A stretch of 64,000 bases of DNA from an uncultured Spartobacteria bacterium (GTDB lineage Bacteria; Verrucomicrobiota; Verrucomicrobiia; Chthoniobacterales; Chthoniobacteraceae). The notes under the pieces were generated by a model. The model was not told the DNA's origin. It was given only the letters and a program-made list of their open reading frames with translations, and did not search any database. This document shows positions 6,801 through 42,668 of this stretch, in pieces. Where the stretch lies: contig CAIXGS010000012.1 in assembly GCA_903919125.1 (NCBI GenBank), positions 27,706 to 91,705 of the forward strand, given 5' to 3'. The position numbers and the translations under genes were made by a program. Position 1 is the stretch's first letter. Each line of letters begins with the position of its first letter.

Positions 6801-9800
6801 TCACAACCCAGAAATATCATGGGGTAGAGTGAACTTCTCAATCAAGGTCACCCCGAGCGGGCCGGGTTTTAATGCGAATTTTAGAAGCGACGTTCCGCGC
6901 ATCACTTGCAGCTCAACTTCTGGGGCTGTAGTTGTTTTTTCTAGATCGGCAAACTGCTCTTGCGTGGTGATTTCAACGCCCGCGTAGCCACTGATTCTGT
7001 CGCCCTCAAGTAATCCAAACTGCGCGGCCTGACTTTCTCCCAAAATGCCAGCTACCACGAGAGCCGTGGGTTTTAGCAGCTCGCCGTCGACTCCAAGGTG
7101 CCACTCAATGCTGACATTTCCGCGCCCGTCGTATTCTTTGCGAAGCTCTGCGTAGCCGTCTTTATGTAAAGTGAGATTCCCGTCGACGCCGAAGTAGCTG
7201 GTAAGCGTGACATTGCCGTGGTCATCGAATTCTTGGCGAATCTCTGCATAGCCGTCCTTGAGCAAAGTGGGCTTGCCGTCAACTCCAAGGTACCCCTGAC
7301 GGATGACATTTCCGCGCTCGTCGTATTCTTGGCGGAGCTCTGCATAGCCGTCCTTGAGTAAAGTGGGCTTTCCGTCGACGCCAATGTACGACAGACAGAT
7401 GACATTACCGCGCTCGTCATATTCTTGGCGAATCTCTGCGTAGCCGTCTTTATGCAAAGAGGGCTTGCCGCCGACACCGAGATACCACCTGCGGGTAACA
7501 TTTCCGCGCCGGTCGTATTCATGGCGGATGTCTGCGTAGCCGTCCTTGTGTAAAGTAGGCCTGCCGTCGACGCCGAAGTAGCTGGTAAGTGTGACGTTTC
7601 CGCGCTCATCATATTTTAGGCGGAACTCGGCATAGCCGTCCTCGTGCAAAGTGGGCTTGCCGTCGACGCCAATGTAGCACCGGCGGGTAGCATTTCCGCG
7701 CTGGTCGTATTCCCGGCGAAACTCGGCATAGCCGTCCTTGAGCAAAGTGGGCTTGCCGTCGACGCCGAAGTAACTGGTGAGTGTGACGTTTCCGCGCTCA
7801 TCATATTTTAGACGGAACTCTGAAAAGCCGTTTTTGTGCAAAGTGGGTTTGCCGTCGACGCCAATGTACCACTCACGGGTAACATTTCCGCGCTGGTCGT
7901 ATTCTTGGCGGAACTCTGCGAAGCCGTCCTTGTGCAAAGTAGGCTTGCCGTCAACTCCACGGTAGCACCAGTAGACTGCGTTGTCTCGCTCATCGAATTC
8001 TTGGCGGACCTCTGCATAGCCGTTCTTGATCAAGGTGGGCTTGCCGTCGACGCCGAAGTAGCTGGTAAGTGTGACGTTTCCGCGCTCATCATATTTTAGG
8101 CGGAACTCTGCATAGCCGTCCTTGTGCAAAGTGGGCTTGCCGCCGACACCGAGGTACCACCTGCGGGTGGCATTTCCGCGCTCGTCGTATTCTTTACGGA
8201 TCTCTGCGTAGCCGTTCCTGTGCAAAGTAGGCTTGCCGTCGATACCAAGATAGCACTGACGGGTAACATTTCCGTACTCGTCGTATTCTTGGCGGAGCTC
8301 TACATAGCTGTTCTCGTGCAAGGCAGGATTGCTATCGACGCCCAGGTACCACCAATGGGTGACATTTCCGCGCTCATCGAATTCTTGGCGAATCTCTGCG
8401 AAGCCGTCCTTGTGCAAAGAAGGTTTACCATCGACGCCAAGGTAGAACCGACGGGTGACATTTCCGCGCTCATCGTATTCTGTGCAGAGCTCTGAGTGAG
8501 CATCCTTGTGTGAAGTAGGATTGCCCTCGACGTCAAAGTAGCACTGCCGAGTAACATTTCCGCGCTCATCGAATTCTTGGCGAAGCTCTGCGTAGCCGTC
8601 CTTGTGCAAAGTGGGCTTGCCGTCGACGCCAATGTACCACTCACGGGTAAGATTTCCGCGCTTGTCGTATTCTTGGCGAACGTCTGTGTAGCCGTACTTG
8701 TGCAAGGTGGGCTTGCCGTCGATGTCGAGGAAGCAGGTACGGGTGACATTTCCGCGCTCATCGAATTCTTGGCGAAGCTCTGCGAAACCATTTTTTAGGA
8801 AAGTGGGCTTGCCGTCGGCGCCAATGTAGCACGCACGGATGATATTTCCGCGCTCATCGTATTCTTGGCGGAACTCTGCATTTCCGTCTTTGTGCAAAGT
8901 GGGCTTGTTATCAACGCCGAGGTACCGCGTACGAGTAATATTACCGCGCGCATTGTATTCCAGGCGGAGCTCTGCGAAGCCGTCGGGATTTCTGATCGGT
9001 TCGCTCCGCAGATCCAAGTATCGCACTGCGGTCATTACACCGTTGGCGTTACGTACTCGATGTACCGATGCTACGCCATTTTTGCCGGCGATTTTCACCA
9101 GCGTCCGCTTTTTGAATTCAATGAAGTTTTCGGAAATCCTCAATCCATTCCCATCGTACGTGTAGGCAATGCCTCCCACTCCATTGGCATCCCTTGTCGT
9201 TTGATTGTAAGAGTTTTTACAATACATAACATGGTCAATCAGACCACTGGCGCCATAAGCGCGAAGATGACGGACGATTTCCGTACGAGCTGTGTAATCC
9301 TTTTGCTTACCAAAGCCTGAGTTTGTAAATGACGGGAGCGCACTCTCCACTCCCTCTTTGGCTGAGACGAAGTCGACGATTTCAAGACGTTCGCCGCTTA
9401 GACGCTGCGTGCTTAGTACCCGCGCTTTTTGATTTATTTTTCCGTTGGGAAGCAGCGCTTTTTCGTCCAGCAGGTCCAACCGTTCAAGCCGGGTCTCTTT
9501 TTCGCCAGCGTACGTACACTTCAGCGCTGTGAAGCCGAGGTAATCGGACTCCCCATTGTACACTGGTTTACCCGTTCCGTTGACATAGGCAACAAGCCGC
9601 AGGCGGTTTTTGCGGTAAATCATCTGGTAAGAGCCCGAGCGTCTGGCCGCCTCCTGGGCGGAGATATGGAAGACGCCCTCTGGCATCCCCCAACGCAGCG
9701 TGAAATCTTGAAAGTAAAACGATTTCTCACGCCAATAATAATCCCAAGCCCACCATCCGCCCGTCATAAGCGCCATGGCTAAGGTTACAATCAAAGAACC

Positions 9801-10403
9801 GAAGAAACGCTGGCGCCTGAGAGCCAGTCGCTTGTGTCGCTCATAGAGTTGATCAAAACGCAGCCCCAAAATGGCAGCCACCACCTTTAAGACAATGCGT
9901 TCTCGATCATACTCCGCCATGGATGCCCCGAGGATTTCATGCGAAAGACTAGGGGGATAAGTGTGTGCGGGCACCGCCAAGGCGGGATCAGTTTCACAAA
10001 TCACGGGCACAATGCAGTCCTCACGCCCAAGTTCGTAAAAATGCTTAATTTCGCGTGCAACCCATTCCGAGGCGGCGGACTTTCGGGAGCAAAGCACGAT
10101 AAGAAAACGGCTGTCATCAAGTTCGCGCCGCAAATGCCTAGTGAGACTCCCGGCGCTCAGGTCGGTCTTGTCTCTAAAAACGGGGCGAAGAGATCGCGGC
10201 AGGTGCCCCCCGGCTTCCTTCTGAATCGAAACGGGGAGCCGGTACGCCTCTAAAGCATGCTGTAGCCATTTGGCCGTGGATTCGTCGGCGTGGGAATAGC
10301 TAATAAAAGCGTGGTAAGTGAAGCGTTGCGAACTCATGGAGGTTCTTTTTTCGCGCTTAAAGACAAAGAAACATTTTTGAACAAAGCCAGCGTTGAGACC
10401 CAA
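6801..10403 (-). CDS. giant TIR-domain membrane protein: N-terminal TIR, one TM helix, about 20 tandem 32-aa YD-like repeats, C-terminal PDZ-like domain; likely true start ATG at 10337 (listed start is TTG)
   Basis: TIR signature FISYSHADESTAKW...FLIVLCSRKSAASEWVAREIKHF; TM FFGSLIVTLAMALMTGGWWAW; repeats of GYAEFRQEYDERGNVTRxxYxGVDGKPTLHKD; C-terminal VVAGILGESQAAQFGLLEGDRISGYAGVEI...VELQVMRG PDZ-like. Confidence 0.85.
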   Translation of the reverse strand: MGLNAGFVQKCFFVFKREKRTSMSSQRFTYHAFISYSHADESTAKWLQHALEAYRLPVSIQKEAGGHLPRSLRPVFRDKTDLSAGSLTRHLRRELDDSRFLIVLCSRKSAASEWVAREIKHFYELGREDCIVPVICETDPALAVPAHTYPPSLSHEILGASMAEYDRERIVLKVVAAILGLRFDQLYERHKRLALRRQRFFGSLIVTLAMALMTGGWWAWDYYWREKSFYFQDFTLRWGMPEGVFHISAQEAARRSGSYQMIYRKNRLRLVAYVNGTGKPVYNGESDYLGFTALKCTYAGEKETRLERLDLLDEKALLPNGKINQKARVLSTQRLSGERLEIVDFVSAKEGVESALPSFTNSGFGKQKDYTARTEIVRHLRAYGASGLIDHVMYCKNSYNQTTRDANGVGGIAYTYDGNGLRISENFIEFKKRTLVKIAGKNGVASVHRVRNANGVMTAVRYLDLRSEPIRNPDGFAELRLEYNARGNITRTRYLGVDNKPTLHKDGNAEFRQEYDERGNIIRACYIGADGKPTFLKNGFAELRQEFDERGNVTRTCFLDIDGKPTLHKYGYTDVRQEYDKRGNLTREWYIGVDGKPTLHKDGYAELRQEFDERGNVTRQCYFDVEGNPTSHKDAHSELCTEYDERGNVTRRFYLGVDGKPSLHKDGFAEIRQEFDERGNVTHWWYLGVDSNPALHENSYVELRQEYDEYGNVTRQCYLGIDGKPTLHRNGYAEIRKEYDERGNATRRWYLGVGGKPTLHKDGYAEFRLKYDERGNVTLTSYFGVDGKPTLIKNGYAEVRQEFDERDNAVYWCYRGVDGKPTLHKDGFAEFRQEYDQRGNVTREWYIGVDGKPTLHKNGFSEFRLKYDERGNVTLTSYFGVDGKPTLLKDGYAEFRREYDQRGNATRRCYIGVDGKPTLHEDGYAEFRLKYDERGNVTLTSYFGVDGRPTLHKDGYADIRHEYDRRGNVTRRWYLGVGGKPSLHKDGYAEIRQEYDERGNVICLSYIGVDGKPTLLKDGYAELRQEYDERGNVIRQGYLGVDGKPTLLKDGYAEIRQEFDDHGNVTLTSYFGVDGNLTLHKDGYAELRKEYDGRGNVSIEWHLGVDGELLKPTALVVAGILGESQAAQFGLLEGDRISGYAGVEITTQEQFADLEKTTTAPEVELQVMRGTSLLKFALKPGPLGVTLIEKFTLPHDISGL
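7073..8984 (-). repeat. in-frame 96-bp (32-codon) tandem repeat array, about 20 units, high nucleotide identity between units
   Basis: Periodic ORFs with the same 32-aa periodicity appear in all other frames on both strands across this interval (frame shadows of a DNA-level tandem array). Confidence 0.8.
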
Positions 10404-21232: not shown

Positions 21233-24200
21233 AGAAGAAGTTCACTCCGCACTCCAACCGCACGTTTTCATGAACCTTAACGCATTTTTAGCGCAGCACA
21301 ACTTGAACGCATTAAACGGGAAACTACCGTTTAAATCGGCTGATGAGTTGCGATCCCTCTTTCCCGAGGGCAATACTTTAGATCAGTTGCAACTTCTCGG
21401 TTTGGAGGAGCGAAAGTTAAAAAGGGCGGTCGAGACCCTGCCCTTTCGAAGCAATCTTCCGACGCCGCTGGCTCTTTCATTGAAGGAGTTTCATCTATGC
21501 ACCAGCGGTGCCGAGTCGCTTTGGATGGCGTGCAATTTTTTGGAGATCGTTCTGAAATTTTGTTTCGCGGCTGCAATTGCCGAAAGAACAGAGACTTGTG
21601 GAGCGTTGGTAATGCCCGAATCTCTGGTGGATCTGATAAGCGAACGGATTGACACGCCTGGACTGGGAGAGTGGCTCAAACTTACTGAGAAAGCTGTCGA
21701 AAACGTGGGAACTTGGAATTCAAACACCCCGCTACAGAAGGAGCTTCTCAACACGGTTGAGAAGGTGCGCGTTCTTAAGGTAACCCACGGAATGTGGGAT
21801 ACTCGAAATCGTCTTGCGCACGGAGGATGGTTCAGGCGGTCTCCGGTCGATGTTGACATTTGGAGGGGGCCGTTTCTTGATTTTGTCGCGAAGGATCTAA
21901 TTTGGTTGGAGCGGGCCGAGCTTCTTGCTGGGGCTGGAGACAAGGTTTGGCTTTTTCGGGGCGAGACGGCGTCTGTGTATCATTCGTGGAACCATTGGCG
22001 GCGGGGTGCAATTCACGCCGGGATGTGCCGCATAATTTCGAGCAATCTTGGGGCTGATTTGGACGTCAGTCCCTTCGCTGCCACAAGTCCCGCAGTTCCC
22101 CTTCCTCTGATGTATGCGCGCTGGAAAGGCAGTTGCATAGAGTACATCAGCTATGGCGGATTGGTGGAATGGGTAAAGGAGCCTAATCGACTAAATAACG
22201 ATTGTTTCCGCAAAAACTTTATTCGCCCATCGTTTAAGTGGCTTTCAACTCCTTTTCCTGACTTTCGAGACAAAGGACAAGACGCCATTTCACAAACGGA
22301 GTCTTGCCGATTTTTGGTTAATATAGTGGACCAACGAATCAAAAAAGGCGGCGGAGGTATTCTTTGGGTGGATGGAGTCGAGGGCAGTGGCAAGTCCACG
22401 ATAATGGCTCATCTAGCGAAAAGACGTATCGATCAGCGTGATCTTGGTAAAGTGCTTACATTCGCGTACCGCTTTGAAAGCTCTTCCTTTTTAAGCCGCG
22501 CAGAGTATTTTTTACATTATATCTATCTGCGTCTGTCATCGGCTCATTGGAATCCATCCACTCAAAAATGGAGCGTATCCAAGGGAACAAACGAAGCGTT
22601 CGATCCGGCCTGCACAGTATCTGCGGAAGACATTCTGGATCTGTTCAAAAAAAAGACTGAGGATCCGCTGAGTATGATGCTGTTTGTCGTAGACGGCATC
22701 GATGATATGATCGCCAAGCACTATTGGTTCTTGGCTGAGGTCTTATCCCCTCTAACCAAAGATAGTAGAATTCTCTTTGTCGTGTCAGGCATGCACGGGA
22801 CGCCGGTTGCGTACAATTTTCGGATGAATGGGGCTTCCTCTGTTTTCCGCGACGGTTTGCCTCCTTTGACGTTAAGGGAATTTACTTCTGTGCTGTGCAC
22901 GGCATGCGGTGACTCTAGCACGAAATTGTTGGACCTCCAAACTCAGGCCGAACGCGAGAGCCACGCATTCGCGGAAAACCCAGAAGGAGTTGCGGGGGAG
23001 GAGGAAAGAAAATTGTTGGAGCTCCAAACTCGGGCCGAACGCAAGAGCCACGAATTCGCTGAAAACCCAGAACGAGTCGCGAGGGAAGAGAAAAGAATAC
23101 ACTCGTTTGGCTTTTTGGCAGAGGCCCATCGAAAAGGGAAGGGTTTACCTCTTTATGCATCCTACCTAGCCGAAGATTTGCGGTCGGGCGTGATCAAAAT
23201 CGGAGAAGTTGATGCCCTGCCTGAGGGCATTGAAGGTTACCATAACCTCCAGCTTGCTCGAACGGGTGTTTTAGAAATGCTCAGCCCCCTGCCTGCAAGC
23301 GCTCTTCGAGCGGCTTTTGGTGGCTTTGTGGCAGCCACTGAAATGCGTCTTGAAGGAAATCGGACCGTTGATGCCCGAGGAAAAGACGCGGCTCGGGCGT
23401 TGATTCAACCCGTTGATGAATATCTTGCGCGGGCCTCGGTACTCGCACTCATGGCTACGGATTCCAATGCCGTTACGGTGGATGAAATCAGCCAGCGTTT
23501 GGGGCAAACTGTGTTGCGAGGGCAGAACGCCGAGGAGCGCTCCGCGGTGTTGGAGCGCGCATTGGAAGCCGTTTCGCCCATGCTCAAAATGGCTCCAATC
23601 GATGAATCTGGACGAGAGGGGTTTGAGCTGGCGAACCAGTCTATTCGCCGGCATTTGAATTCACTCCCTGGGATCCAGCAGATGGCGCACCGGTTCAAGC
23701 GACGCTCGGACGATGCTCCGCCCTCGGAACCCCGCGAGCCTAAACGGGTGGATGATATTCCGCAATGGGAACGACCGAGGGAAGATAGGATTGACGATAG
23801 ACCATTCGAGGAACGGCGAAATACGTCCGAAATGGAAGAGCGCGTGGCCGCGTGCATCAGTCGCTTAGAGAGCATTAAGCGTTGTTCTGAAGTATCGGAG
23901 TTCGACTTAGACCTTTACGGCAGCGGGTCCAATGACTGGGTGGAACATTTTTTTGACGGAACCATAGCCGAGGTAGTTGCCATTCTCCAGAGAGGGAGAT
24001 CTCTCGCATTAACGCCTTCCAAAGCGTTCAAGGCCCTTGGACAGGTGGGAGTGACTTCGGATTTTAAATGGAGTGATCATCTGAGGGATGCGCCGAGCAT
24101 CCTTAGAAATTTCACGTGGAGTGAACCTTCTGTGACGCAACGCTCAATGCACCCCAGTTATCGATACCATTTGCACCCCAGTTATCGATACCATTTCGGG

Positions 24201-24557
24201 AAGGACTGGTACCAGAGGTCGTGGGATCTTGATAGGGGAACTAGTGCGGGCGGAAATGCTTTTGCATTAATAAGTTATATTGACTTTCAATTGAACAGCT
24301 GGGTGAGGAGAGTGTGCCGTGCCGAGAATGATGGTGTAACAGTTTATAAAATTGCTAATTCCCGAGAACTCGAATTTGTGTGCGGCGCGGTAGCCGACAT
24401 TCTAGATTTGGTAAGGGATGGAGCAGATTTGTCTGGGCTTGATGCTTTCCCTGGGGCCGTTCATCTCAAAAGCCGAGAAAATCAATTTTCTTTAGCTAGA
24501 ATTTTTTCGATCGAGTTCGTTTTCAGGGACCTTCCAGTACGCGTCTCTATAGATTAA
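21189..24557 (+). CDS. STAND-type P-loop NTPase (about 1100 aa) with unknown N-terminal domain and repetitive C-terminal region; likely true start ATG at 21270
   Basis: Walker A ILWVDGVEGSGKST and Walker B-like LMLFVVDGIDDM; 37-bp spacing after P2; lower GC than the backbone. Confidence 0.75.
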   Translation: MTRISQSSDASLRIREEVHSALQPHVFMNLNAFLAQHNLNALNGKLPFKSADELRSLFPEGNTLDQLQLLGLEERKLKRAVETLPFRSNLPTPLALSLKEFHLCTSGAESLWMACNFLEIVLKFCFAAAIAERTETCGALVMPESLVDLISERIDTPGLGEWLKLTEKAVENVGTWNSNTPLQKELLNTVEKVRVLKVTHGMWDTRNRLAHGGWFRRSPVDVDIWRGPFLDFVAKDLIWLERAELLAGAGDKVWLFRGETASVYHSWNHWRRGAIHAGMCRIISSNLGADLDVSPFAATSPAVPLPLMYARWKGSCIEYISYGGLVEWVKEPNRLNNDCFRKNFIRPSFKWLSTPFPDFRDKGQDAISQTESCRFLVNIVDQRIKKGGGGILWVDGVEGSGKSTIMAHLAKRRIDQRDLGKVLTFAYRFESSSFLSRAEYFLHYIYLRLSSAHWNPSTQKWSVSKGTNEAFDPACTVSAEDILDLFKKKTEDPLSMMLFVVDGIDDMIAKHYWFLAEVLSPLTKDSRILFVVSGMHGTPVAYNFRMNGASSVFRDGLPPLTLREFTSVLCTACGDSSTKLLDLQTQAERESHAFAENPEGVAGEEERKLLELQTRAERKSHEFAENPERVAREEKRIHSFGFLAEAHRKGKGLPLYASYLAEDLRSGVIKIGEVDALPEGIEGYHNLQLARTGVLEMLSPLPASALRAAFGGFVAATEMRLEGNRTVDARGKDAARALIQPVDEYLARASVLALMATDSNAVTVDEISQRLGQTVLRGQNAEERSAVLERALEAVSPMLKMAPIDESGREGFELANQSIRRHLNSLPGIQQMAHRFKRRSDDAPPSEPREPKRVDDIPQWERPREDRIDDRPFEERRNTSEMEERVAACISRLESIKRCSEVSEFDLDLYGSGSNDWVEHFFDGTIAEVVAILQRGRSLALTPSKAFKALGQVGVTSDFKWSDHLRDAPSILRNFTWSEPSVTQRSMHPSYRYHLHPSYRYHFGKDWYQRSWDLDRGTSAGGNAFALISYIDFQLNSWVRRVCRAENDGVTVYKIANSRELEFVCGAVADILDLVRDGADLSGLDAFPGAVHLKSRENQFSLARIFSIEFVFRDLPVRVSID
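22922..23096 (+). repeat. in-frame tandem duplication, 2 x about 87 bp (29-aa unit KLLDLQTQAERESHAFAENPEGVAGEEER)
   Basis: Two adjacent copies about 90% identical at nucleotide level inside the STAND gene. Confidence 0.7.
24149..24196 (+). repeat. perfect 24-bp tandem duplication x2 (HPSYRYHL HPSYRYHF) inside the STAND gene
   Basis: gcaccccagttatcgataccattt occurs twice in direct succession. Confidence 0.85.
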
Positions 24558-37440: not shown

Positions 37441-38562
37441 TCACGCCAGACGCTTCCAAAGGTGCTGGATGAAAGCCGCGTTGTCGCATTGCAAATAGGC
37501 CATCGGAGCGCCCATCCGTGAGAAGCTTTTACAAAAACGTAAGTAATACGCCGGATTAGTCTTAGGCGGCTCCCCCTGGGCCCAATCCCATCCGCCGCCG
37601 TCTTGTAAATCTACGACAAAAATAGAATGTCCCGCCACGGGCGCGCTCCCCTTTTGTAAACGGAGGTTGTTCACGCAGCTCAGACTCTTTTCGAAAACCT
37701 GCGGCCCCATAATCGCGGAGCCCACGGACAACACCACGCCGCCCTCCAAATTTGCCACCGAGCCGCCGAACAACTTAAAATCCAGTTCCGCCCCTCGTCC
37801 CAAAACTCCCCCGTTAAACGCGGGATGATTAGCGATAATATCGTAACCGATCCCCGGATGCACCGTCATGGGGACCGAGTGCTTCCACGCCGACGCCAGA
37901 ATGGACGCCTGCTTCCAGCGATGCTCCACGGCAATTCGCCCCGCGCCCCAACCGCGCTCCAGCATCGTACGAAGCAAGTCTGCTCGCGCAGGCGTGAGCG
38001 GATGCGCGGGTGCTTGGGAAATCAGCGTATGCAGCGCGACCGGGTCTGGCAGCGTCACGCCGTCTTCGTGGATAAAGCGTCCCAAGGAGCGCCCATATCC
38101 AAGGTCCTCCAACGCTCCGGCAAGTAGTGCCAGATGAATGTAATCCCCCGTTTCCTTCCAACAACCAAACGTACCGGAAGCCACGTTATCAGCGACACCC
38201 TCGGTACTTGCGCCAAGCCAAGCGTATTCCCAATCGTGGATGGTCCCCGCGCCATTGGTAGCCAAATGCGTGAGCCAACCGCGTTCCATCAAGGCGTCCA
38301 AAACCAAAGCCGCGCCGTTGCGTAAAAGGTGCGCCCCGTAAATCAGAATGACTGCGGCATCGCGCTCCCGAGCGGCGCGGATCGCTGCGGCAGCGCGGTC
38401 CAACTGAATCGCTGCGTCCTGAGAAATAGCGGCGGGCGAAGCGCTGAGCGGAAGCAGAACGTCTTCACAACGCGTCAGGCTCCGACGCTCAGCTAGCGGT
38501 TGGACCCGCAATTGGGACAGATCCAGAGGAACGAGCGCTTTGTGAGCAGTTGGCGAGCTCAT
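37441..38562 (-). CDS. hypothetical protein (373 aa)
   Basis: ORF; weak resemblance to the DHS-like NAD-binding fold at best. Confidence 0.45.
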   Translation of the reverse strand: MSSPTAHKALVPLDLSQLRVQPLAERRSLTRCEDVLLPLSASPAAISQDAAIQLDRAAAAIRAARERDAAVILIYGAHLLRNGAALVLDALMERGWLTHLATNGAGTIHDWEYAWLGASTEGVADNVASGTFGCWKETGDYIHLALLAGALEDLGYGRSLGRFIHEDGVTLPDPVALHTLISQAPAHPLTPARADLLRTMLERGWGAGRIAVEHRWKQASILASAWKHSVPMTVHPGIGYDIIANHPAFNGGVLGRGAELDFKLFGGSVANLEGGVVLSVGSAIMGPQVFEKSLSCVNNLRLQKGSAPVAGHSIFVVDLQDGGGWDWAQGEPPKTNPAYYLRFCKSFSRMGAPMAYLQCDNAAFIQHLWKRLA

Positions 38563-39407
38563 GAAAGCAACAAGGGTGCAATCAACTCCAAAGCATTTCG
38601 AAAGTCAGGCAACGCAGCGTGCGCCCCAACCGCCCTCAGTTGGTCAAACTTCCACGGATCACAAACGCCGGAGCCGTTGTGATTCTCGTCCGAACACACG
38701 GCCACGGCTGCTCCGCCAAGACGCACCGCTTCCGCAATCTCCACAGGACCATCGCCAAACGCCAATAACTGTTCGCCGGAAATTCCAGCCTCCGCCAGAA
38801 TGCGTTCAAACACCGCTCGCTTCGTAAATTGCGACGGATCCAGCGGAGACCCGTGGATGCGTTCTCCAAAAAAGTGTGCGATGCCCAAGAGCTCAGCCTC
38901 TTCGCGCACTCGATGTTCCACCGTCGAACTAAGGACGAATAGTTGTACACCCCGTGCTGCCAGAAATTCCAAAAGCGCACGCGCTCCAGCCACAACATAG
39001 GCGTCCGGTGCAACAGTTTGGGAGTGAACTTGCGCCGTGCGTTCGCGGATCTGAGCGTCCAAGCGATCCTGAAAGGTGACCCGAAGCTGCTCAGGATTCA
39101 GCTGAACGCCGCCTTGAGAAAGCGACCAATCTGCGAAAGCGCGCATTTGCTCAATGGTCGGCTTTCCATTGAGAGCCAAAATCAAAACGGTGAGTTCTGC
39201 CCGCGTTTGCGAATCCCGCACACTCAAACCGGCGGGCATATTTTCCTCGAAAACTTCTAGCATCAATTCCGGCCAGCCATGCCGCAGCCAAGACAGCGTG
39301 CCGTCGAAATCAAAAACGACGTGGGTTACTTTACCCAAACCAAGTGGTTCAATCTCCCATTTTACGGGCGTTACGAGCGACTCACTTGGCAGGGAAGCAT
39401 TCATCAA
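38559..39407 (-). CDS. HAD-superfamily hydrolase
   Basis: VVFDFDGTL motif I and later HAD motifs. Confidence 0.7.
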
Positions 39408-41701
39408 AAGAAGATGGGGATTACCAAAATAGCGACGATGTTAGCAACCTTGATCATGGGATTGATCGCGGGCCCTGACGTATCTTTGTAAGGATCGCCC
39501 ACCGTATCTCCGGTAACCGCAGCGCCATGAGCAGGAGAATGCTTCCCGCCATGGTTTCCTTCTTCAATGTACTTCTTCGCGTTATCCCACGCCCCGCCGC
39601 TGGAGGTCATGGCGAGTCCCATAAAAAGTCCGGTGACAATTGTTCCCACCAAAAATCCACCCAACACCGTTTTTCCGAGCATCGGAGTTGCCGCGATGCA
39701 AACCACAAACAATACGGGCAGTAGCGCGGGAATGATCATCTCGCGCAACGCCGCCTTGGTCACGATATCCACGCAAGTCCCGTATTCAGGCAACTCCGTA
39801 CCGAGCAATATCCCGGGCTTCGCCTTGAGCTGACGGCGCACTTCCTCCACGACAGCGCCGGCCGCACGCCCCACTGCGTCCATGCTGAACGCAGAAAAAA
39901 CAAACGGGAGTAGTCCGCCCAAGAACAGACCGATGATCACTTTAGGATCGTTGAGCGAAAAATCCAATGCACCCGCGACTAGCCGCCCTGCATGCTCGAG
40001 ATGCACGCGCAACTCCTCCACGTAGGTCCCGAACAGCACCACGGCTGCCAGCCCCGCCGAGGCGATCGCGTACCCCTTGGTCACGGCCTTCATCGTGTTG
40101 CCGACTGCGTCGAGTTCATCCGTAATCCCACGCACCTCCGCAGGAAGTCCCGCCATGACGGCAATCCCGCCAGCGTTGTCCGTGATCGGCCCAAACGCAT
40201 CCAAAGAAATAATGATACCCGCCATCGACAACATCGCCATCACGGCCACTGCGATCCCGTACAAACCCGCTAGTTCGTACGAACCCAAAATCGCCGCCCC
40301 GATGCAAAGGACCGGAAGCGCCGTAGCGTGTTGGCCCATCGCGAGTCCTGCGATGATGTTGGTCGCGTGGCCGGTTTCACAAGCTTTGGCGATTTTACGC
40401 ACCGGCGCGTGATGGGTTGAGGTGTAATAATTGGTGATCGCCACAACGAGTCCAGTCATCACCAAGCCAATCAGAGACGCCCCGTACACGCTACCGGCAC
40501 CGAGGGTTTTTCCATCTAATACTACACCCGAGCCGAACAGCGATTGAGTGATCGGCCACAGTGCCACAGCGGAAACGATCCCCGAAACCCCCACGCCAGA
40601 CATCAAAGCCGCAGCGGGTGCCAACCGAGTCATATTCACGAAGAGCACGCCCACAATCGCACCCAAAATGGAAATGCCGCCCAGCAAAAAGGGAAACAAG
40701 ATCGCGTTCGGAAAACCCTTCAGAGTGAGACCTGCGATGAGCACCGCACCAATCAGACTGACCGCATAAGTCTCAAAAACGTCGGCTGCCATTCCTGCGC
40801 AGTCGCCGACATTGTCGCCGACGTTATCCGCGATAGTGGCCGGATTGCGGGGATCATCTTCGTCGAGGTTGCTTTCAATTTTGCCCACGAGATCCGCGCC
40901 CACGTCGGCGGCCTTCGTGTAAATACCGCCTCCCAAACGGGCAAACACACTGATGAGACTCGCTCCCAGAGCCAAGCCCACGAGACTATGCAACGCCTCC
41001 GCCTGTCCTTGCCAGCGTTGCACGCCCTCGAAAAAGAGAGCCGTAGAAAGCAGCGCCAAGCCCACCACCAGCAAGCCCGTCACCGCCCCACCATTGAACG
41101 CCACATTCAACGCCGCACGCCGACTGTGAACAGCACCCTGAGCCGTCCGCACATTGGCAAGCACAGCAACGCGCATCCCGATAAAACCAGCCGCCAACGA
41201 ACACACCGCACCCAAGAGGAAACCGAGCGCAGTTGCCGCCCCCAACTTCCAAAACAGCAGCGCAAAAAGTACCGCAGCAATCAAACTGATCGAGGCCAAC
41301 TGACGGTTCAAGTACGCCTTCGCCCCCTCCTCAATGGCCGCAGCGATCTCCCTCATACGCTGATGTTCGATTCGAATTTTAAGGATTGAAAAGATCAATC
41401 CGAACGCGACCAACAGGCTTATTATGGAACAAACAATAACAATAGGGATTCCTGAGGTTTCAAGAAAAGAGGCTAGCATCATAGGGGAACTCATAAAAAA
41501 TCTGGGGTTCTGGGGGTTCTGGGGGTTCTGGGGGTTCTGGGGGGGCTGGGGGGGCTGGGGGGGCTGGGGGGGCTGGGGGGGCTGGGGGTTCTGGGGGGGG
41601 GCTGGGGGTTCTAAGAGTGAAGAAGATTCTGGGGGGGGTAAGAGGGTTTTAGGGGGAAGATTTTTTACAACAGACGCAGAAGCGTATTCTGCATAAATCA
41701 A
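39404..41701 (-). CDS. hppA: membrane-bound proton-translocating pyrophosphatase; listed start is TTG, with ATG at 41494 the more credible start
   Basis: [21 protein letters not shown] and a multi-helix layout typical of H+-PPase. Confidence 0.9.
41502..41612. repeat. G-tract 9-bp microsatellite (CTGGGGGTT / CTGGGGGGG units, G runs of 5 to 9) immediately 5' of the hppA ATG
   Basis: Seen directly; about 12 units; encodes [10 protein letters not shown] only if the upstream TTG start is used. Confidence 0.85.
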
Positions 41702-41759
41702 AACATTTACCTGATGAAGGGCTGCGAATTATCTCAATTTTTCAACTGATTCTAAGCGC

Positions 41760-42668
41760 TCAAGCCCTATGAGCGATAAGTTGGAGAATCGCTTTTTGAG
41801 CGTGTAAGCGATTTTCCGCCTGATCAAAAAGTGTTTCTGCGTGCGCTTCAAAAGTCTCCGCCGTGATCTCTTTACCACGGTAAGCGGGCAAACAATGCAT
41901 CACTAGTGCACCAGGCGCTGCACACTCCACCAACTTCTCGTTGATCTGGTATTTTGCCAGCGAAGCCATCCGCTCAGCAGCCTCCGACTCCTTGCCCATA
42001 CTCACCCAAACATCCGTGTAAAGCACATCGACTCCCCGGGCCGCCTCATTTGGATCCTCAAAAACTGATATATGTCCCGTCCGGCGCGCGCGTTCCAAAA
42101 GAGTATCGCTAGGCTGAAAACCCGCTGGAGCTGCGATACGCAACTCAAGATCCAACTTTGCCGCCGCCCAAATCCACGAGGCAGCGACGTTACAAGCTCC
42201 GTCGCCGACAAAACAAACCGAGCGCCCTTCCAAAGAGCCCATGCGTTCGCGAATCGTCTGTAGATCGGCCAATATTTGGCACGGATGCTCATCATCCGTA
42301 AGCGCGTTCACCGTTGGAATTCGGGAATACTGCGCAAATGTCTCCACATCCGACTGCAAAAACGTCCGAATCACGGCTCCATCGAGCATCCGCCCCATCA
42401 CGCGGGCGGTGTCCTCAATAGGTTCGCCCCGCCCCAATTGGATGTCAGTCGCTGACAAAAACATGACAGACCCACCCAGTTCGCGGATCCCCACCTCGAA
42501 GGACACCCGGGTGCGGGTGGAAGATTTGCTAAAAATGAGCGCCCAACACTGGCCGGCAAGCGGCAAGAACTCATGATGGCCGCGAGAGGCCTTGAGCGTT
42601 TCGGCGAGATCCAAAACGTCGTATATTTCATCCCTTGTAAGGGCTTCTATCGAAAGCAAATGTTTCAT
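41760..42668 (-). CDS. argF: ornithine carbamoyltransferase
   Basis: STRTR carbamoyl-phosphate motif, HCLP motif. Confidence 0.9.
   Translation of the reverse strand: MKHLLSIEALTRDEIYDVLDLAETLKASRGHHEFLPLAGQCWALIFSKSSTRTRVSFEVGIRELGGSVMFLSATDIQLGRGEPIEDTARVMGRMLDGAVIRTFLQSDVETFAQYSRIPTVNALTDDEHPCQILADLQTIRERMGSLEGRSVCFVGDGACNVAASWIWAAAKLDLELRIAAPAGFQPSDTLLERARRTGHISVFEDPNEAARGVDVLYTDVWVSMGKESEAAERMASLAKYQINEKLVECAAPGALVMHCLPAYRGKEITAETFEAHAETLFDQAENRLHAQKAILQLIAHRA

Follow-up and report, generated by a model that had tools for sequence, protein, structure and literature searches.

What is a long G-rich 9-nt repeat doing directly in front of the gene for a membrane-bound ion pump: does it encode a part of the protein, does it switch the gene on and off, or does it lie in an untranslated leader? 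The repeat was found in an uncultured Spartobacteria bacterium, a freshwater Verrucomicrobium, and the window, by which we mean the whole stretch of DNA analysed, comprises 64,000 nt (CAIXGS010000012.1 of assembly GCA_903919125.1, positions 27,706-91,705 of the forward strand). The repeat and the two genes beside it are located as follows:

41501..41612, minus strand: compound 9-nt tandem array in the hppA leader, from the sequence, Tandem Repeats Finder (TRF), pattern statistics, unit parsing and the identical array of assembly L081.
39404..41494, minus strand: hppA, membrane-bound proton/sodium-translocating pyrophosphatase of 696 aa, from Pfam, NCBIfam and the conserved MSSP N-terminus.
41760..42668, minus strand: argF (ornithine carbamoyltransferase), the upstream gene, from Pfam OTCace_N and OTCace.

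The array covers 112 bp and is built from about 12 head-to-tail 9-nt units, G-rich on the plus strand, which is the template of hppA, and C-rich on the gene strand. Parsed on the gene strand in the register CCCCCAGNN, it reads one CCCCCAGCC, one 11-nt CCCCCCCAGAA, five CCCCCAGCC, four CCCCCAGAA and a truncated CCCCAGA, the blocks of five and four being homogeneous. TRF gives it period 9 with 10 copies, 92% matches and a score of 124, and additional rows with period 18/27 and scores of 146-150. All ten matches to GGGGGGG in the 64-kb window fall inside 41539-41638, and there are 10 occurrences of the two-unit pattern CTGGGGGKKCTGGGGG where chance would give 0.11. The longest G run of the array is a G9 (41593-41601); there are also a lone G8 (41631-41638) and a G5 (41652-41656). 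With five G7 runs, one G8, one G9 and about 12 units this is a hypermutable simple-sequence repeat, if such repeats are defined by several perfect multi-nucleotide units or by a homopolymer of at least about 7 nt. The initial annotation had described a G-rich 9-bp repeat with G runs up to 9, which TRF and the independent assembly L081 bear out, and had placed it correctly between a TTG at 41701 and the ATG at 41494.

Contig ends gather at the array, and in another assembly, L084, it lies at a contig tip with probable errors, which might suggest an error of assembly or sequencing, for instance the poly-G of two-colour Illumina chemistry. We consider this practically out of the question: the array lies inside long contigs and does not differ between independent assemblies, it has an ordered unit structure, and homologous CCCCAGAA motifs exist in sister lineages. 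L081, an independent ENA assembly, has the same 117-nt stretch as the window, and L084 has the last nine units of the array in common with it. That the array is real, and no assembly artefact, is confirmed.

The gene that follows is a membrane pyrophosphatase by its family match, which is full-length and above the curated cut-off (PF03030, E = 5.8e-246, 818.6 bits with a cut-off of 29.7, positions 1-644 of 645 covered), and it also passes NF001951 (952.8 bits, cut-off 859) and TIGR01104 (759.4 bits, cut-off 651.9); the initial naming as an H+-pyrophosphatase was thus correct. Its start is ATG 41494 (MSSP...), conserved in all alleles compared. Public gene calls start hppA at ATG 41482, which puts a product of 692 aa on record; no 696-aa product is on record, and the 692-aa form was used for comparison. 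The 90% protein cluster of hppA has no member longer than 696 aa.

No stop interrupts the frame between 41701 and 41494, and translation from the TTG, one of the two options in the initial annotation, would make the array a Pro/Gln-rich N-terminal tail of the pyrophosphatase (ORF 39404..41701 on the minus strand, 765 aa). The open frame across the array is however uninformative, because the C-rich array is, from its unit sequences, stop-free in any sense-strand frame. The extension is not conserved either: L100 has an in-frame stop five codons upstream of the MSSP ATG, L090 has an open stretch upstream of the ATG that holds no start codon, and the array is absent from L093 and L094 of the nearest sister lineages. 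Moreover, the Pfam domain begins only at residue 93 of the 765-aa form, and the extension is never picked by gene callers. We reject the coding extension on these comparative data as extremely improbable, and the array appears to be non-coding. An antisense ORF (41424-41696, plus strand, 90 aa with GFW/GGW repeats) was rejected as well; it has no Pfam match, and a search of 5.8 billion proteins for length variants gave only unrelated low-complexity GW proteins.

The argF-hppA spacer is 265 nt long and contains, besides the array, the following elements:

41495..41500, minus strand: U6 tract (A6 on the plus strand) in the gap between array and ATG, from the sequence.
41613..41659, minus strand: non-repeated 5' part of the C-rich, G-poor leader, from the alignment and the composition table.
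41660..41669, minus strand: TA-rich box TGTAAAAAAT, a candidate extended -10, from the alignment with sister lineages.
41676..41692, minus strand: inverted repeat GCAGAA-TACGC-TTCTGC, then a T-rich tail, from covariation and local fold.

Because a 6-nt A/T run alone separates the array from the ATG, there is no room for a promoter downstream of the array, and the array must, judging from this geometry, be transcribed within the 5' leader of hppA; a candidate -10 box stands upstream of it. The second option of the initial annotation, a C-rich leader on the mRNA, appears to be the right one, with the conserved ATG 41494 downstream of the array. The 5' part of the leader carries a C5 (41652-41656) and a C8 (41631-41638) and is homologous to the short leader of the sister lineages. 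The TGTAAAAAAT box aligns to TGTTAGAAT or TGTTATAAT in sister lineages (L109 has TGTTATAAT), and this TAGAAT/TATAAT-like box, conserved directly upstream of the C-rich stretch, may be the extended -10 of the hppA promoter. A CTAGAAT is also present upstream of hppA in L002 and L027. A caveat to the promoter is that the consensus scan of the region gave no full sigma-70 promoter; it gave no intrinsic terminator either.

L001, L004 and all sister lineages have the same argF-hppA gene order. The inverted repeat has 86% of cells paired across 12 alleles, with one compensatory A-U/G-C pair, and a local fold of -10.9 kcal/mol (z = -4.6); it is a weakly supported candidate for a weak argF terminator or an operator. 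A comparison of 41000-42200 with Rfam at E <= 1 gave no match to any known RNA family. A short uORF (41694-41665), which would give a tnaC-like arrangement, was rejected as probably a product of chance, since it is kept only in L093 and L094 and is absent from L095, L090 and L109. There is no Shine-Dalgarno (SD) sequence before the hppA ATG, and the organism seems to be SD-poor, as an SD-like core stands at just 2 of the 44 ORF starts in the window.

The leader of the window is 165 nt long with 58% C, 8% G, a C/G of 6.9 and C runs every 9 nt, and its (C-G)/78 of 0.64 is the strongest excess of C over G anywhere in the 64 kb, where the next best value is 0.37. Leaders in this genome tend in general to be enriched in C and depleted in G, those of the window having 28% C and 21% G. 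A 191-nt leader RNA has a minimum free energy (MFE) of -2.9 kcal/mol, and 200 of 200 shuffled sequences fold at least as well; having next to no G, the RNA is unable to fold, and it is predicted to be essentially unstructured.

Ten alleles from public assemblies, with 84-100% nucleotide identity in hppA, show how such a leader could have come about. Their leaders are 36-165 nt long (36-93 nt in the sister lineages, and in six of the ten alleles the C-rich leader is only 36-62 nt), and all have 47-59% C and 0-9% G. Among these alleles the 9-nt array is confined to the lineage of the window, and the nearest sister lineages have a single copy of the proto-repeat CCCCCAGAACCCCC. L085 has three C6-7AGAA units, the last two of them identical 13-nt units, and two 15-nt units; L090 differs from L114 and L115, which are about 96% identical to it, by exactly one 13-nt unit; and L100 has CTCCATCC twice. 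At the level of sequence, this shows that at least three lineages (the window, L085/L090 and L100) have independently undergone tandem duplication at one and the same site, with the extreme excess of C over G kept, and the array appears to be a lineage-specific expansion of a short C-rich leader that is common to all close relatives. The hppA leaders of more distant Verrucomicrobiota (L001, L002 and L027) are likewise C-rich and G-poor. A universal C-rich hppA leader was rejected, since non-verrucomicrobial phyla average a C-G of about 0. A scan of JGI metagenomes with an anchor in the start region gave only already-known alleles and unrelated matches.

The initial annotation saw in the repeat a classic substrate for phase-variable expression, so that gain or loss of units or slippage in the G runs would reversibly switch hppA within populations. 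As a description of the substrate this stands: the G7, G8 and G9 runs and the 12 tandem units are of the classic hypermutable kind, and copy number differs between lineages that are about 96% identical. Contigs end in or immediately beside the array in 5 of 7 assemblies of the window's lineage (L081-L084 and L092), and none of about 22 sister-lineage contigs ends in the leader, which could reflect length heterogeneity, but poor Illumina coverage of long G/C runs explains the breaks equally well. The ON/OFF switch lacks such support. The 112-bp array lies neither in an ORF nor between a -35 and a -10, and it is far too long for a promoter spacer, so slippage of a unit or of a G run would have no obvious ON/OFF consequence. 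The gene is also no surface or restriction-modification gene, but encodes a core energy-metabolism enzyme in a free-living bacterium. The comparison of repeat length between strains, which had been proposed as a check, found no variation among the three sequences of this lineage that span the array (the window itself, L081 and a 91.9-kb contig, whose array length was judged from gene spacing); length differences occur only between lineages at <=96% nucleotide identity. The copy number differences between sister lineages show instability on an evolutionary timescale and not population-level switching. Phase-variable ON/OFF switching of hppA is unsupported, and we consider a contingency locus improbable.

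Another possibility is that the DNA itself takes an unusual form, with G-quadruplexes on the template strand, a pH-sensitive i-motif in the C-rich strand or RNA, or both, modulating transcription of the pump gene. Counting at least four tracts of at least three G (or C) with loops of up to 7 nt, together with a high G4Hunter score, the array region qualifies: four non-overlapping G3+N1-7 motifs at 41504-41656 are the only ones on the plus strand of the window, and G4Hunter averages 2.26 over 125 nt with a maximum of 3.28, the highest of the window. The template strand is thus, as the initial annotation supposed, predicted to be G-quadruplex-prone, and is the strongest such sequence in the window. 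The leader is rich in C tracts in all alleles (3-7 runs of at least three C), and in E. coli G4-forming repeats show instability and sensitivity to orientation (PMC7023247). Nevertheless, sister alleles such as L109 (C4, C6, C4) and L093 (C6, C5, C5) fall short of four long tracts, which means that a structure of four tracts is not conserved, and G-quadruplexes favour the displaced non-template strand, while the G-rich strand of hppA is the template. We give such a role little credence.

The explanation that we put forward, tentatively and at slightly less than an even chance, is that hppA has a slippage-prone leader whose expansion tunes rather than switches expression, through competition between Rho and ribosomes on C-rich RNA. 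Throughout this freshwater verrucomicrobial species complex a short C-rich, G-poor leader separates the ATG from the TA-rich box. In the window's lineage, slippage during replication of the proto-repeat would have produced the roughly 12 units of 9 nt, and the leader would have grown from roughly 40-60 nt to about 165 nt. Being unstructured, it could serve as a landing platform contested by ribosomes, with SD-independent initiation, and by the termination factor Rho; at about 165 nt and with a C/G of 6.9 it is longer than the 70-80 nt of untranslated, C-rich and G-poor RNA required by Rho. The number of repeats would thereby give a graded control of hppA expression and of argF read-through, with no ON/OFF switch. 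The analysis shows the repeat itself, its non-coding status, a geometry that requires its transcription, a composition conserved despite turnover in sequence and length, independent expansions in sister lineages and the lack of a predicted RNA fold. The position of the promoter, the involvement of Rho or ribosomes and any effect on expression are things that we infer.

The leaders of 36-62 nt in six of the ten alleles are below the usual length of a rut site, so if Rho loading is a conserved function the early coding region must be used too, and otherwise it is not a conserved function. The single length in the spanning assemblies gives no sign of ongoing tuning. The hppA leader may also be the extreme of a translation-related bias, and its expansion may be neutral. 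Taken to its end, this would mean that the leader matters only as a G-poor, unstructured region and that the 9-nt expansion is the neutral birth of a microsatellite. G-poor leaders are indeed found genome-wide, the array is limited to one lineage and the sisters function with 36-93 nt, the homogeneous unit blocks indicate a recent mutational expansion, and the spanning assemblies do not vary in length. We still find neutrality somewhat unlikely, as at least three lineages acquired duplications here independently, all keeping the extreme excess of C over G, and as Rho would probably not overlook 165 nt of untranslated C-rich RNA. If neutral, the array is a clean natural example of a microsatellite born from a C5-AGAA-C5 proto-repeat.

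To our knowledge, nearly all documented cases of expression control by repeats concern surface and restriction-modification genes in pathogens adapted to a host. Should tuning by leader expansion be real, such control would extend to environmental bacteria and to a core energy-conservation gene, in a graded mode based on Rho or on structure, and the independent expansions in sister lineages add weight to this extension. A bolder reading, which we think quite unlikely, is that Verrucomicrobiota have in the C-tract leader an evolvable element dedicated to the control of hppA, in which the number of CCCCAGAA-type units sets Rho loading or the formation of i-motifs or G-quadruplexes; lineages would then have independently "dialled" hppA by repeat number, a heritable rheostat on core bioenergetics that is possibly coupled to pH. 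Since the array breaks most short-read assemblies of its own lineage, similar loci are probably under-represented in metagenome-assembled genomes.

How does the locus compare with known systems? Neisseria, Campylobacter, Helicobacter and Bordetella have contingency loci with homopolymeric G/C tracts (for a primer see PMC11475388). The G/C runs of 7-9 nt in the hppA leader are of the same slippage-prone kind. The tracts of those pathogens lie in ORFs or promoter spacers, where gain or loss of 1 nt switches expression, whereas those of hppA stand in a long leader with no constraint of frame or spacing. The G4-forming repeats of E. coli (PMC7023247, PMC10530614) are alike in having many tracts of at least four G, loops of 2-4 nt and an expected instability, but here the G-rich strand is the template, the folding is predicted and the four tracts are not conserved.

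A rut site calls for at least 70-80 nt of C-rich, G-poor RNA with C/G > 1 and regularly spaced C, and of about 4,500 validated E. coli rut predictions no more than 37 reach C/G >= 3 (PMC6407284, PMC12360218, PMC5314796). The leader of the window has the length and composition (165 nt, C/G = 6.9), and it would be unstructured and free of ribosomes, with no stable fold, a position upstream of the conserved start and a uORF that is not conserved. Rut-like composition is kept in all ten alleles, although six are merely 36-62 nt. Like Rho-dependent attenuators, the hppA leader is C-rich, G-poor, unstructured and untranslated, with regular C runs upstream of the start. Known rut sites are, in contrast, not tandem repeats and have a much lower C/G than here, and the sister leaders are shorter than the canonical rut length; Rho dependence is a candidate only.

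In Haemophilus influenzae hmw1A/hmw2A, a 7-bp (ATCTTTC)n repeat in the 5' UTR gives graded expression, and the leader forms a long hairpin with a G-rich arm that is cleaved by RNase III (PMC12721329; PMC8262952). The hppA leader has no such hairpin arm; it is unstructured and without a G-rich partner (MFE -2.9 kcal/mol, with 200 of 200 shuffles folding as well). H. influenzae is a host-adapted pathogen in which the hmw repeats govern an adhesin and are variable within populations, whereas hppA belongs to a free-living freshwater bacterium and encodes a housekeeping ion pump, with no variation within the lineage among spanning assemblies. What the two have in common is a multi-nucleotide repeat between promoter and start codon, in the leader, which for hppA is read from the geometry of the locus.

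The 5' leader of hppA is the site of a genuine, lineage-specific microsatellite expansion. The repeat reported in the initial annotation was borne out: Tandem Repeats Finder gives a period of 9 with 10 copies and 92% matches, all ten G7 matches of the 64-kb window fall in 41539-41638, and a pattern of two units is observed 10 times against 0.11 expected. The G9 run lies at 41593-41601, G8 and G5 runs are found shortly past the array, and the local GC skew reaches +0.65. On the minus strand, in the register CCCCCAGNN, the array consists of one CCCCCAGCC, one 11-nt CCCCCCCAGAA, five CCCCCAGCC, four CCCCCAGAA and a truncated CCCCAGA; this slippage-prone 12-unit expansion is specific to the lineage. 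The features of the region are:

39404-41494, minus strand: hppA
41501-41612, G-rich on the plus strand: compound tandem array of 9-nt units
41669-41660, minus strand: TA-rich box TGTAAAAAAT, just upstream of the C-rich stretch
41665-41694, minus strand: 9-codon uORF MQNTLLRLL, stopping immediately before the C-rich leader
41676-41692, minus strand: inverted repeat GCAGAA-N5-TTCTGC with a T-rich tail
41760-42668, minus strand: argF, upstream of hppA

Two other reading frames of the window carry repeats. A 1178-aa ORF (6801-10337, minus) encodes a TIR domain (PF13676/ThsB_TIR) at its N-terminus and, beyond it, about 20 tandem 96-bp (32-aa) repeats (7079-8984, 74% identity); it resembles a large TIR-repeat protein, possibly one acting in defence or signalling. 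A 1095-aa ORF (21270-24557, plus) has an NPHP3_N (STAND-type NTPase) domain and an 87-bp x2 tandem duplication (22923-23097), and a perfect 24-bp x2 repeat at 24148-24196 lies in its span.

The hppA product is a membrane pyrophosphatase (PF03030, E = 5.8e-246; NF001951 and TIGR01104 exceed the cut-off). A class-III aminotransferase gene is also found upstream on the same strand, and a HAD hydrolase gene downstream. The nearest species-level genomes are Verrucomicrobiota MAGs, the top one from Chthoniobacteraceae with 74% amino-acid identity, and two of the closest (L001, L004) keep the argF-hppA order without the array. In its GNTxKAxTKG motif the pyrophosphatase has Lys and Thr, a mark of K+-independent enzymes that pump H+. 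It is labelled 'sodium-translocating' or 'K+-stimulated' by the best NCBIfam model and in public records, so the annotated ion specificity may be wrong. Downstream of the hydrolase, in an order kept in all sister lineages, a 373-aa ORF (37441-38562, minus) gives a sub-threshold match to an ArgZ-like C-terminal Rossmann fold (20.2 bits vs a cut-off of 27).

One alternative offered initially was translation from the TTG at 41701, in whose frame the array reads as a Pro/Gln-rich tail. That this frame is open says little, since stop codons are absent from all sense frames of the C-rich repeat. All proteins in the 90% cluster start with MSSP(M/L)(M/I)(L/P)ASF or at a point four or five residues further on, and none exceeds 696 aa. 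Among the sister loci, L100 has an in-frame stop five codons upstream of the ATG, L090 is open upstream of the ATG without a start codon, and L093/L094 have no array. Together these findings place the start at ATG 41494 (ATG 41482 in public gene calls), the TTG alternative is wrong, and by these comparisons the array is non-coding; a coding array is essentially excluded.

The other alternative, a C-rich leader, was correct. The array lies upstream of the conserved ATG and, judged by its position, must be transcribed; no promoter is possible downstream of it, because a 6-nt A/T run (41495-41500) alone separates it from the ATG. The TA box is a candidate extended -10 element of hppA. Its aligned counterparts are TGTTAGAAT in L090, L096 and L100 and TGTTATAAT in L109. 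Sister lineages have TAGAAT or TATAAT at this box, and so do the distant Verrucomicrobiales L002 and L027, where CTAGAAT stands about 50 nt upstream of hppA. If the box is the -10 element, the entire C-rich stretch of about 160 nt would be 5' UTR. A scan for consensus elements gave neither a complete sigma-70 promoter nor a terminator, and Rfam gave no match. The inverted repeat may serve as a terminator of argF or as an operator; the uORF is probably fortuitous because it is conserved only in L093/L094.

Spacers between argF and hppA were gathered from many public freshwater assemblies by exact-protein look-ups, with hppA nucleotide identities to the window of 84% to 100%:

Window lineage (window, L081, L084, L092): 9-nt array, spacer 265 nt
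L093/L094: one CCCCCAGAACCCCC, spacer 143 nt
L095-L099: CT/C-rich, AGAA repeats absent, spacer 155 nt
L100: CT/C-rich, CTCCATCC in duplicate, spacer 156 nt
L085-L089: three C6-7AGAA units (the last two being identical 13-nt units) and two 15-nt CCTTGATCCCCAGAA units, spacer 193 nt
L090: units of 13 nt and 15 nt, spacer 175 nt
L114/L115 (about 96% identical to L090): L090 minus exactly one 13-nt unit, spacer 162 nt
L109-L113: CAACCACCCCAAAACCACCCCCCATTTTCCCC

The leader measures 36-165 nt from TA box to ATG, yet has 47-59% C and 0-9% G throughout the alleles. In the alignments its composition persists through changes of sequence, unit type and length, with independent tandem duplications in at least three lineages. 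A C-rich hppA leader is also found in the verrucomicrobial L001, L002 and L027 but not in other phyla, where the mean C-G is about 0 (29 loci).

The window and L081 have arrays of identical length, as does a 91.9-kb contig (judged by an identical 278-nt gene spacing), and the final nine units recur in L084; the comparison revealed no length polymorphism. An artefact is essentially excluded, with the least chance of all. A true contingency switch is improbable, as there is neither switch geometry nor visible polymorphism, and the phase variation proposed initially is unsupported in the compared assemblies of the lineage. Contigs end inside or right beside the array in five of the lineage's seven assemblies: L081 stops 13 nt past it, L082 within it and L083 about 70 nt upstream in the C8 tract, and L084 begins within it and L092 with its final 3 nt. 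Of about 22 contigs in sister lineages, none ends in the leader; those without the array run through it (one-sided Fisher about 2e-4, calculated by hand from the displayed places). Heterogeneity in array length would account for these breaks, and so would poor coverage of long G/C runs by short reads. Arrays of this kind probably cause systematic fragmentation of MAGs.

The leader is unstructured: the 191-nt RNA has an MFE of -2.9 kcal/mol, and 200 of 200 dinucleotide shuffles fold equally well or better. On the gene strand it is the window's strongest C>G stretch ((C-G)/78 = 0.64; runner-up 0.37), the extreme of a G-poor-leader trend in this genome. Only 2 of 44 long-ORF starts have a Shine-Dalgarno (SD)-like core at -20 to -4, and positions -40 to -1 before them have mean contents of 28% C and 21% G, coding strands being slightly G-rich; this indicates that the organism largely uses SD-independent initiation from G-poor leaders. 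The template strand is G-quadruplex-prone, as had been suggested: the array is the window's top G4Hunter block (mean 2.26, maximum 3.28), and its region holds the plus strand's only four canonical motifs. Control by G-quadruplex or i-motif is physically plausible but improbable, since the four-tract requirement is unconserved in sister alleles.

We are confident of the anatomy, that is, a non-coding, necessarily transcribed, unstructured leader of conserved composition with a slippage-prone 12-unit expansion. Termination factor Rho needs a stretch of 70-80 nt or more that is C-rich, G-poor, unstructured and untranslated, with C at regular spacing (PMC6407284; PMC12360218), and the leader RNA would match this preference. 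Lying directly before an SD-less start, it may be where ribosome loading competes with Rho, so that repeat number would exert a graded, not a switch-like, control on hppA expression and on argF read-through. This mechanism is our best guess, held tentatively; the main rival, that the expansion is neutral, is only somewhat less likely. The array would gain interest if reads showed length heterogeneity, or if repeat number were shown to set expression.

The array belongs to an already known kind, repeats in bacterial 5' leaders. It is the sort of substrate found in contingency loci but does not lie where theirs do. The leader has the sequence characteristics of a rut (Rho utilisation) site, a putative one; canonical rut sites exceed most of the sister alleles in length. 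Among documented systems the nearest is the hmw1A 5' UTR of Haemophilus influenzae, in which the copy number of an (ATCTTTC)n repeat inversely grades expression (PMC12721329). That system needs a long hairpin cleaved by RNase III, which on folding is absent from the hppA leader (MFE as above); the array is thus not a member of the hmw1A mechanism, but by analogy it may work like a leader-repeat rheostat.
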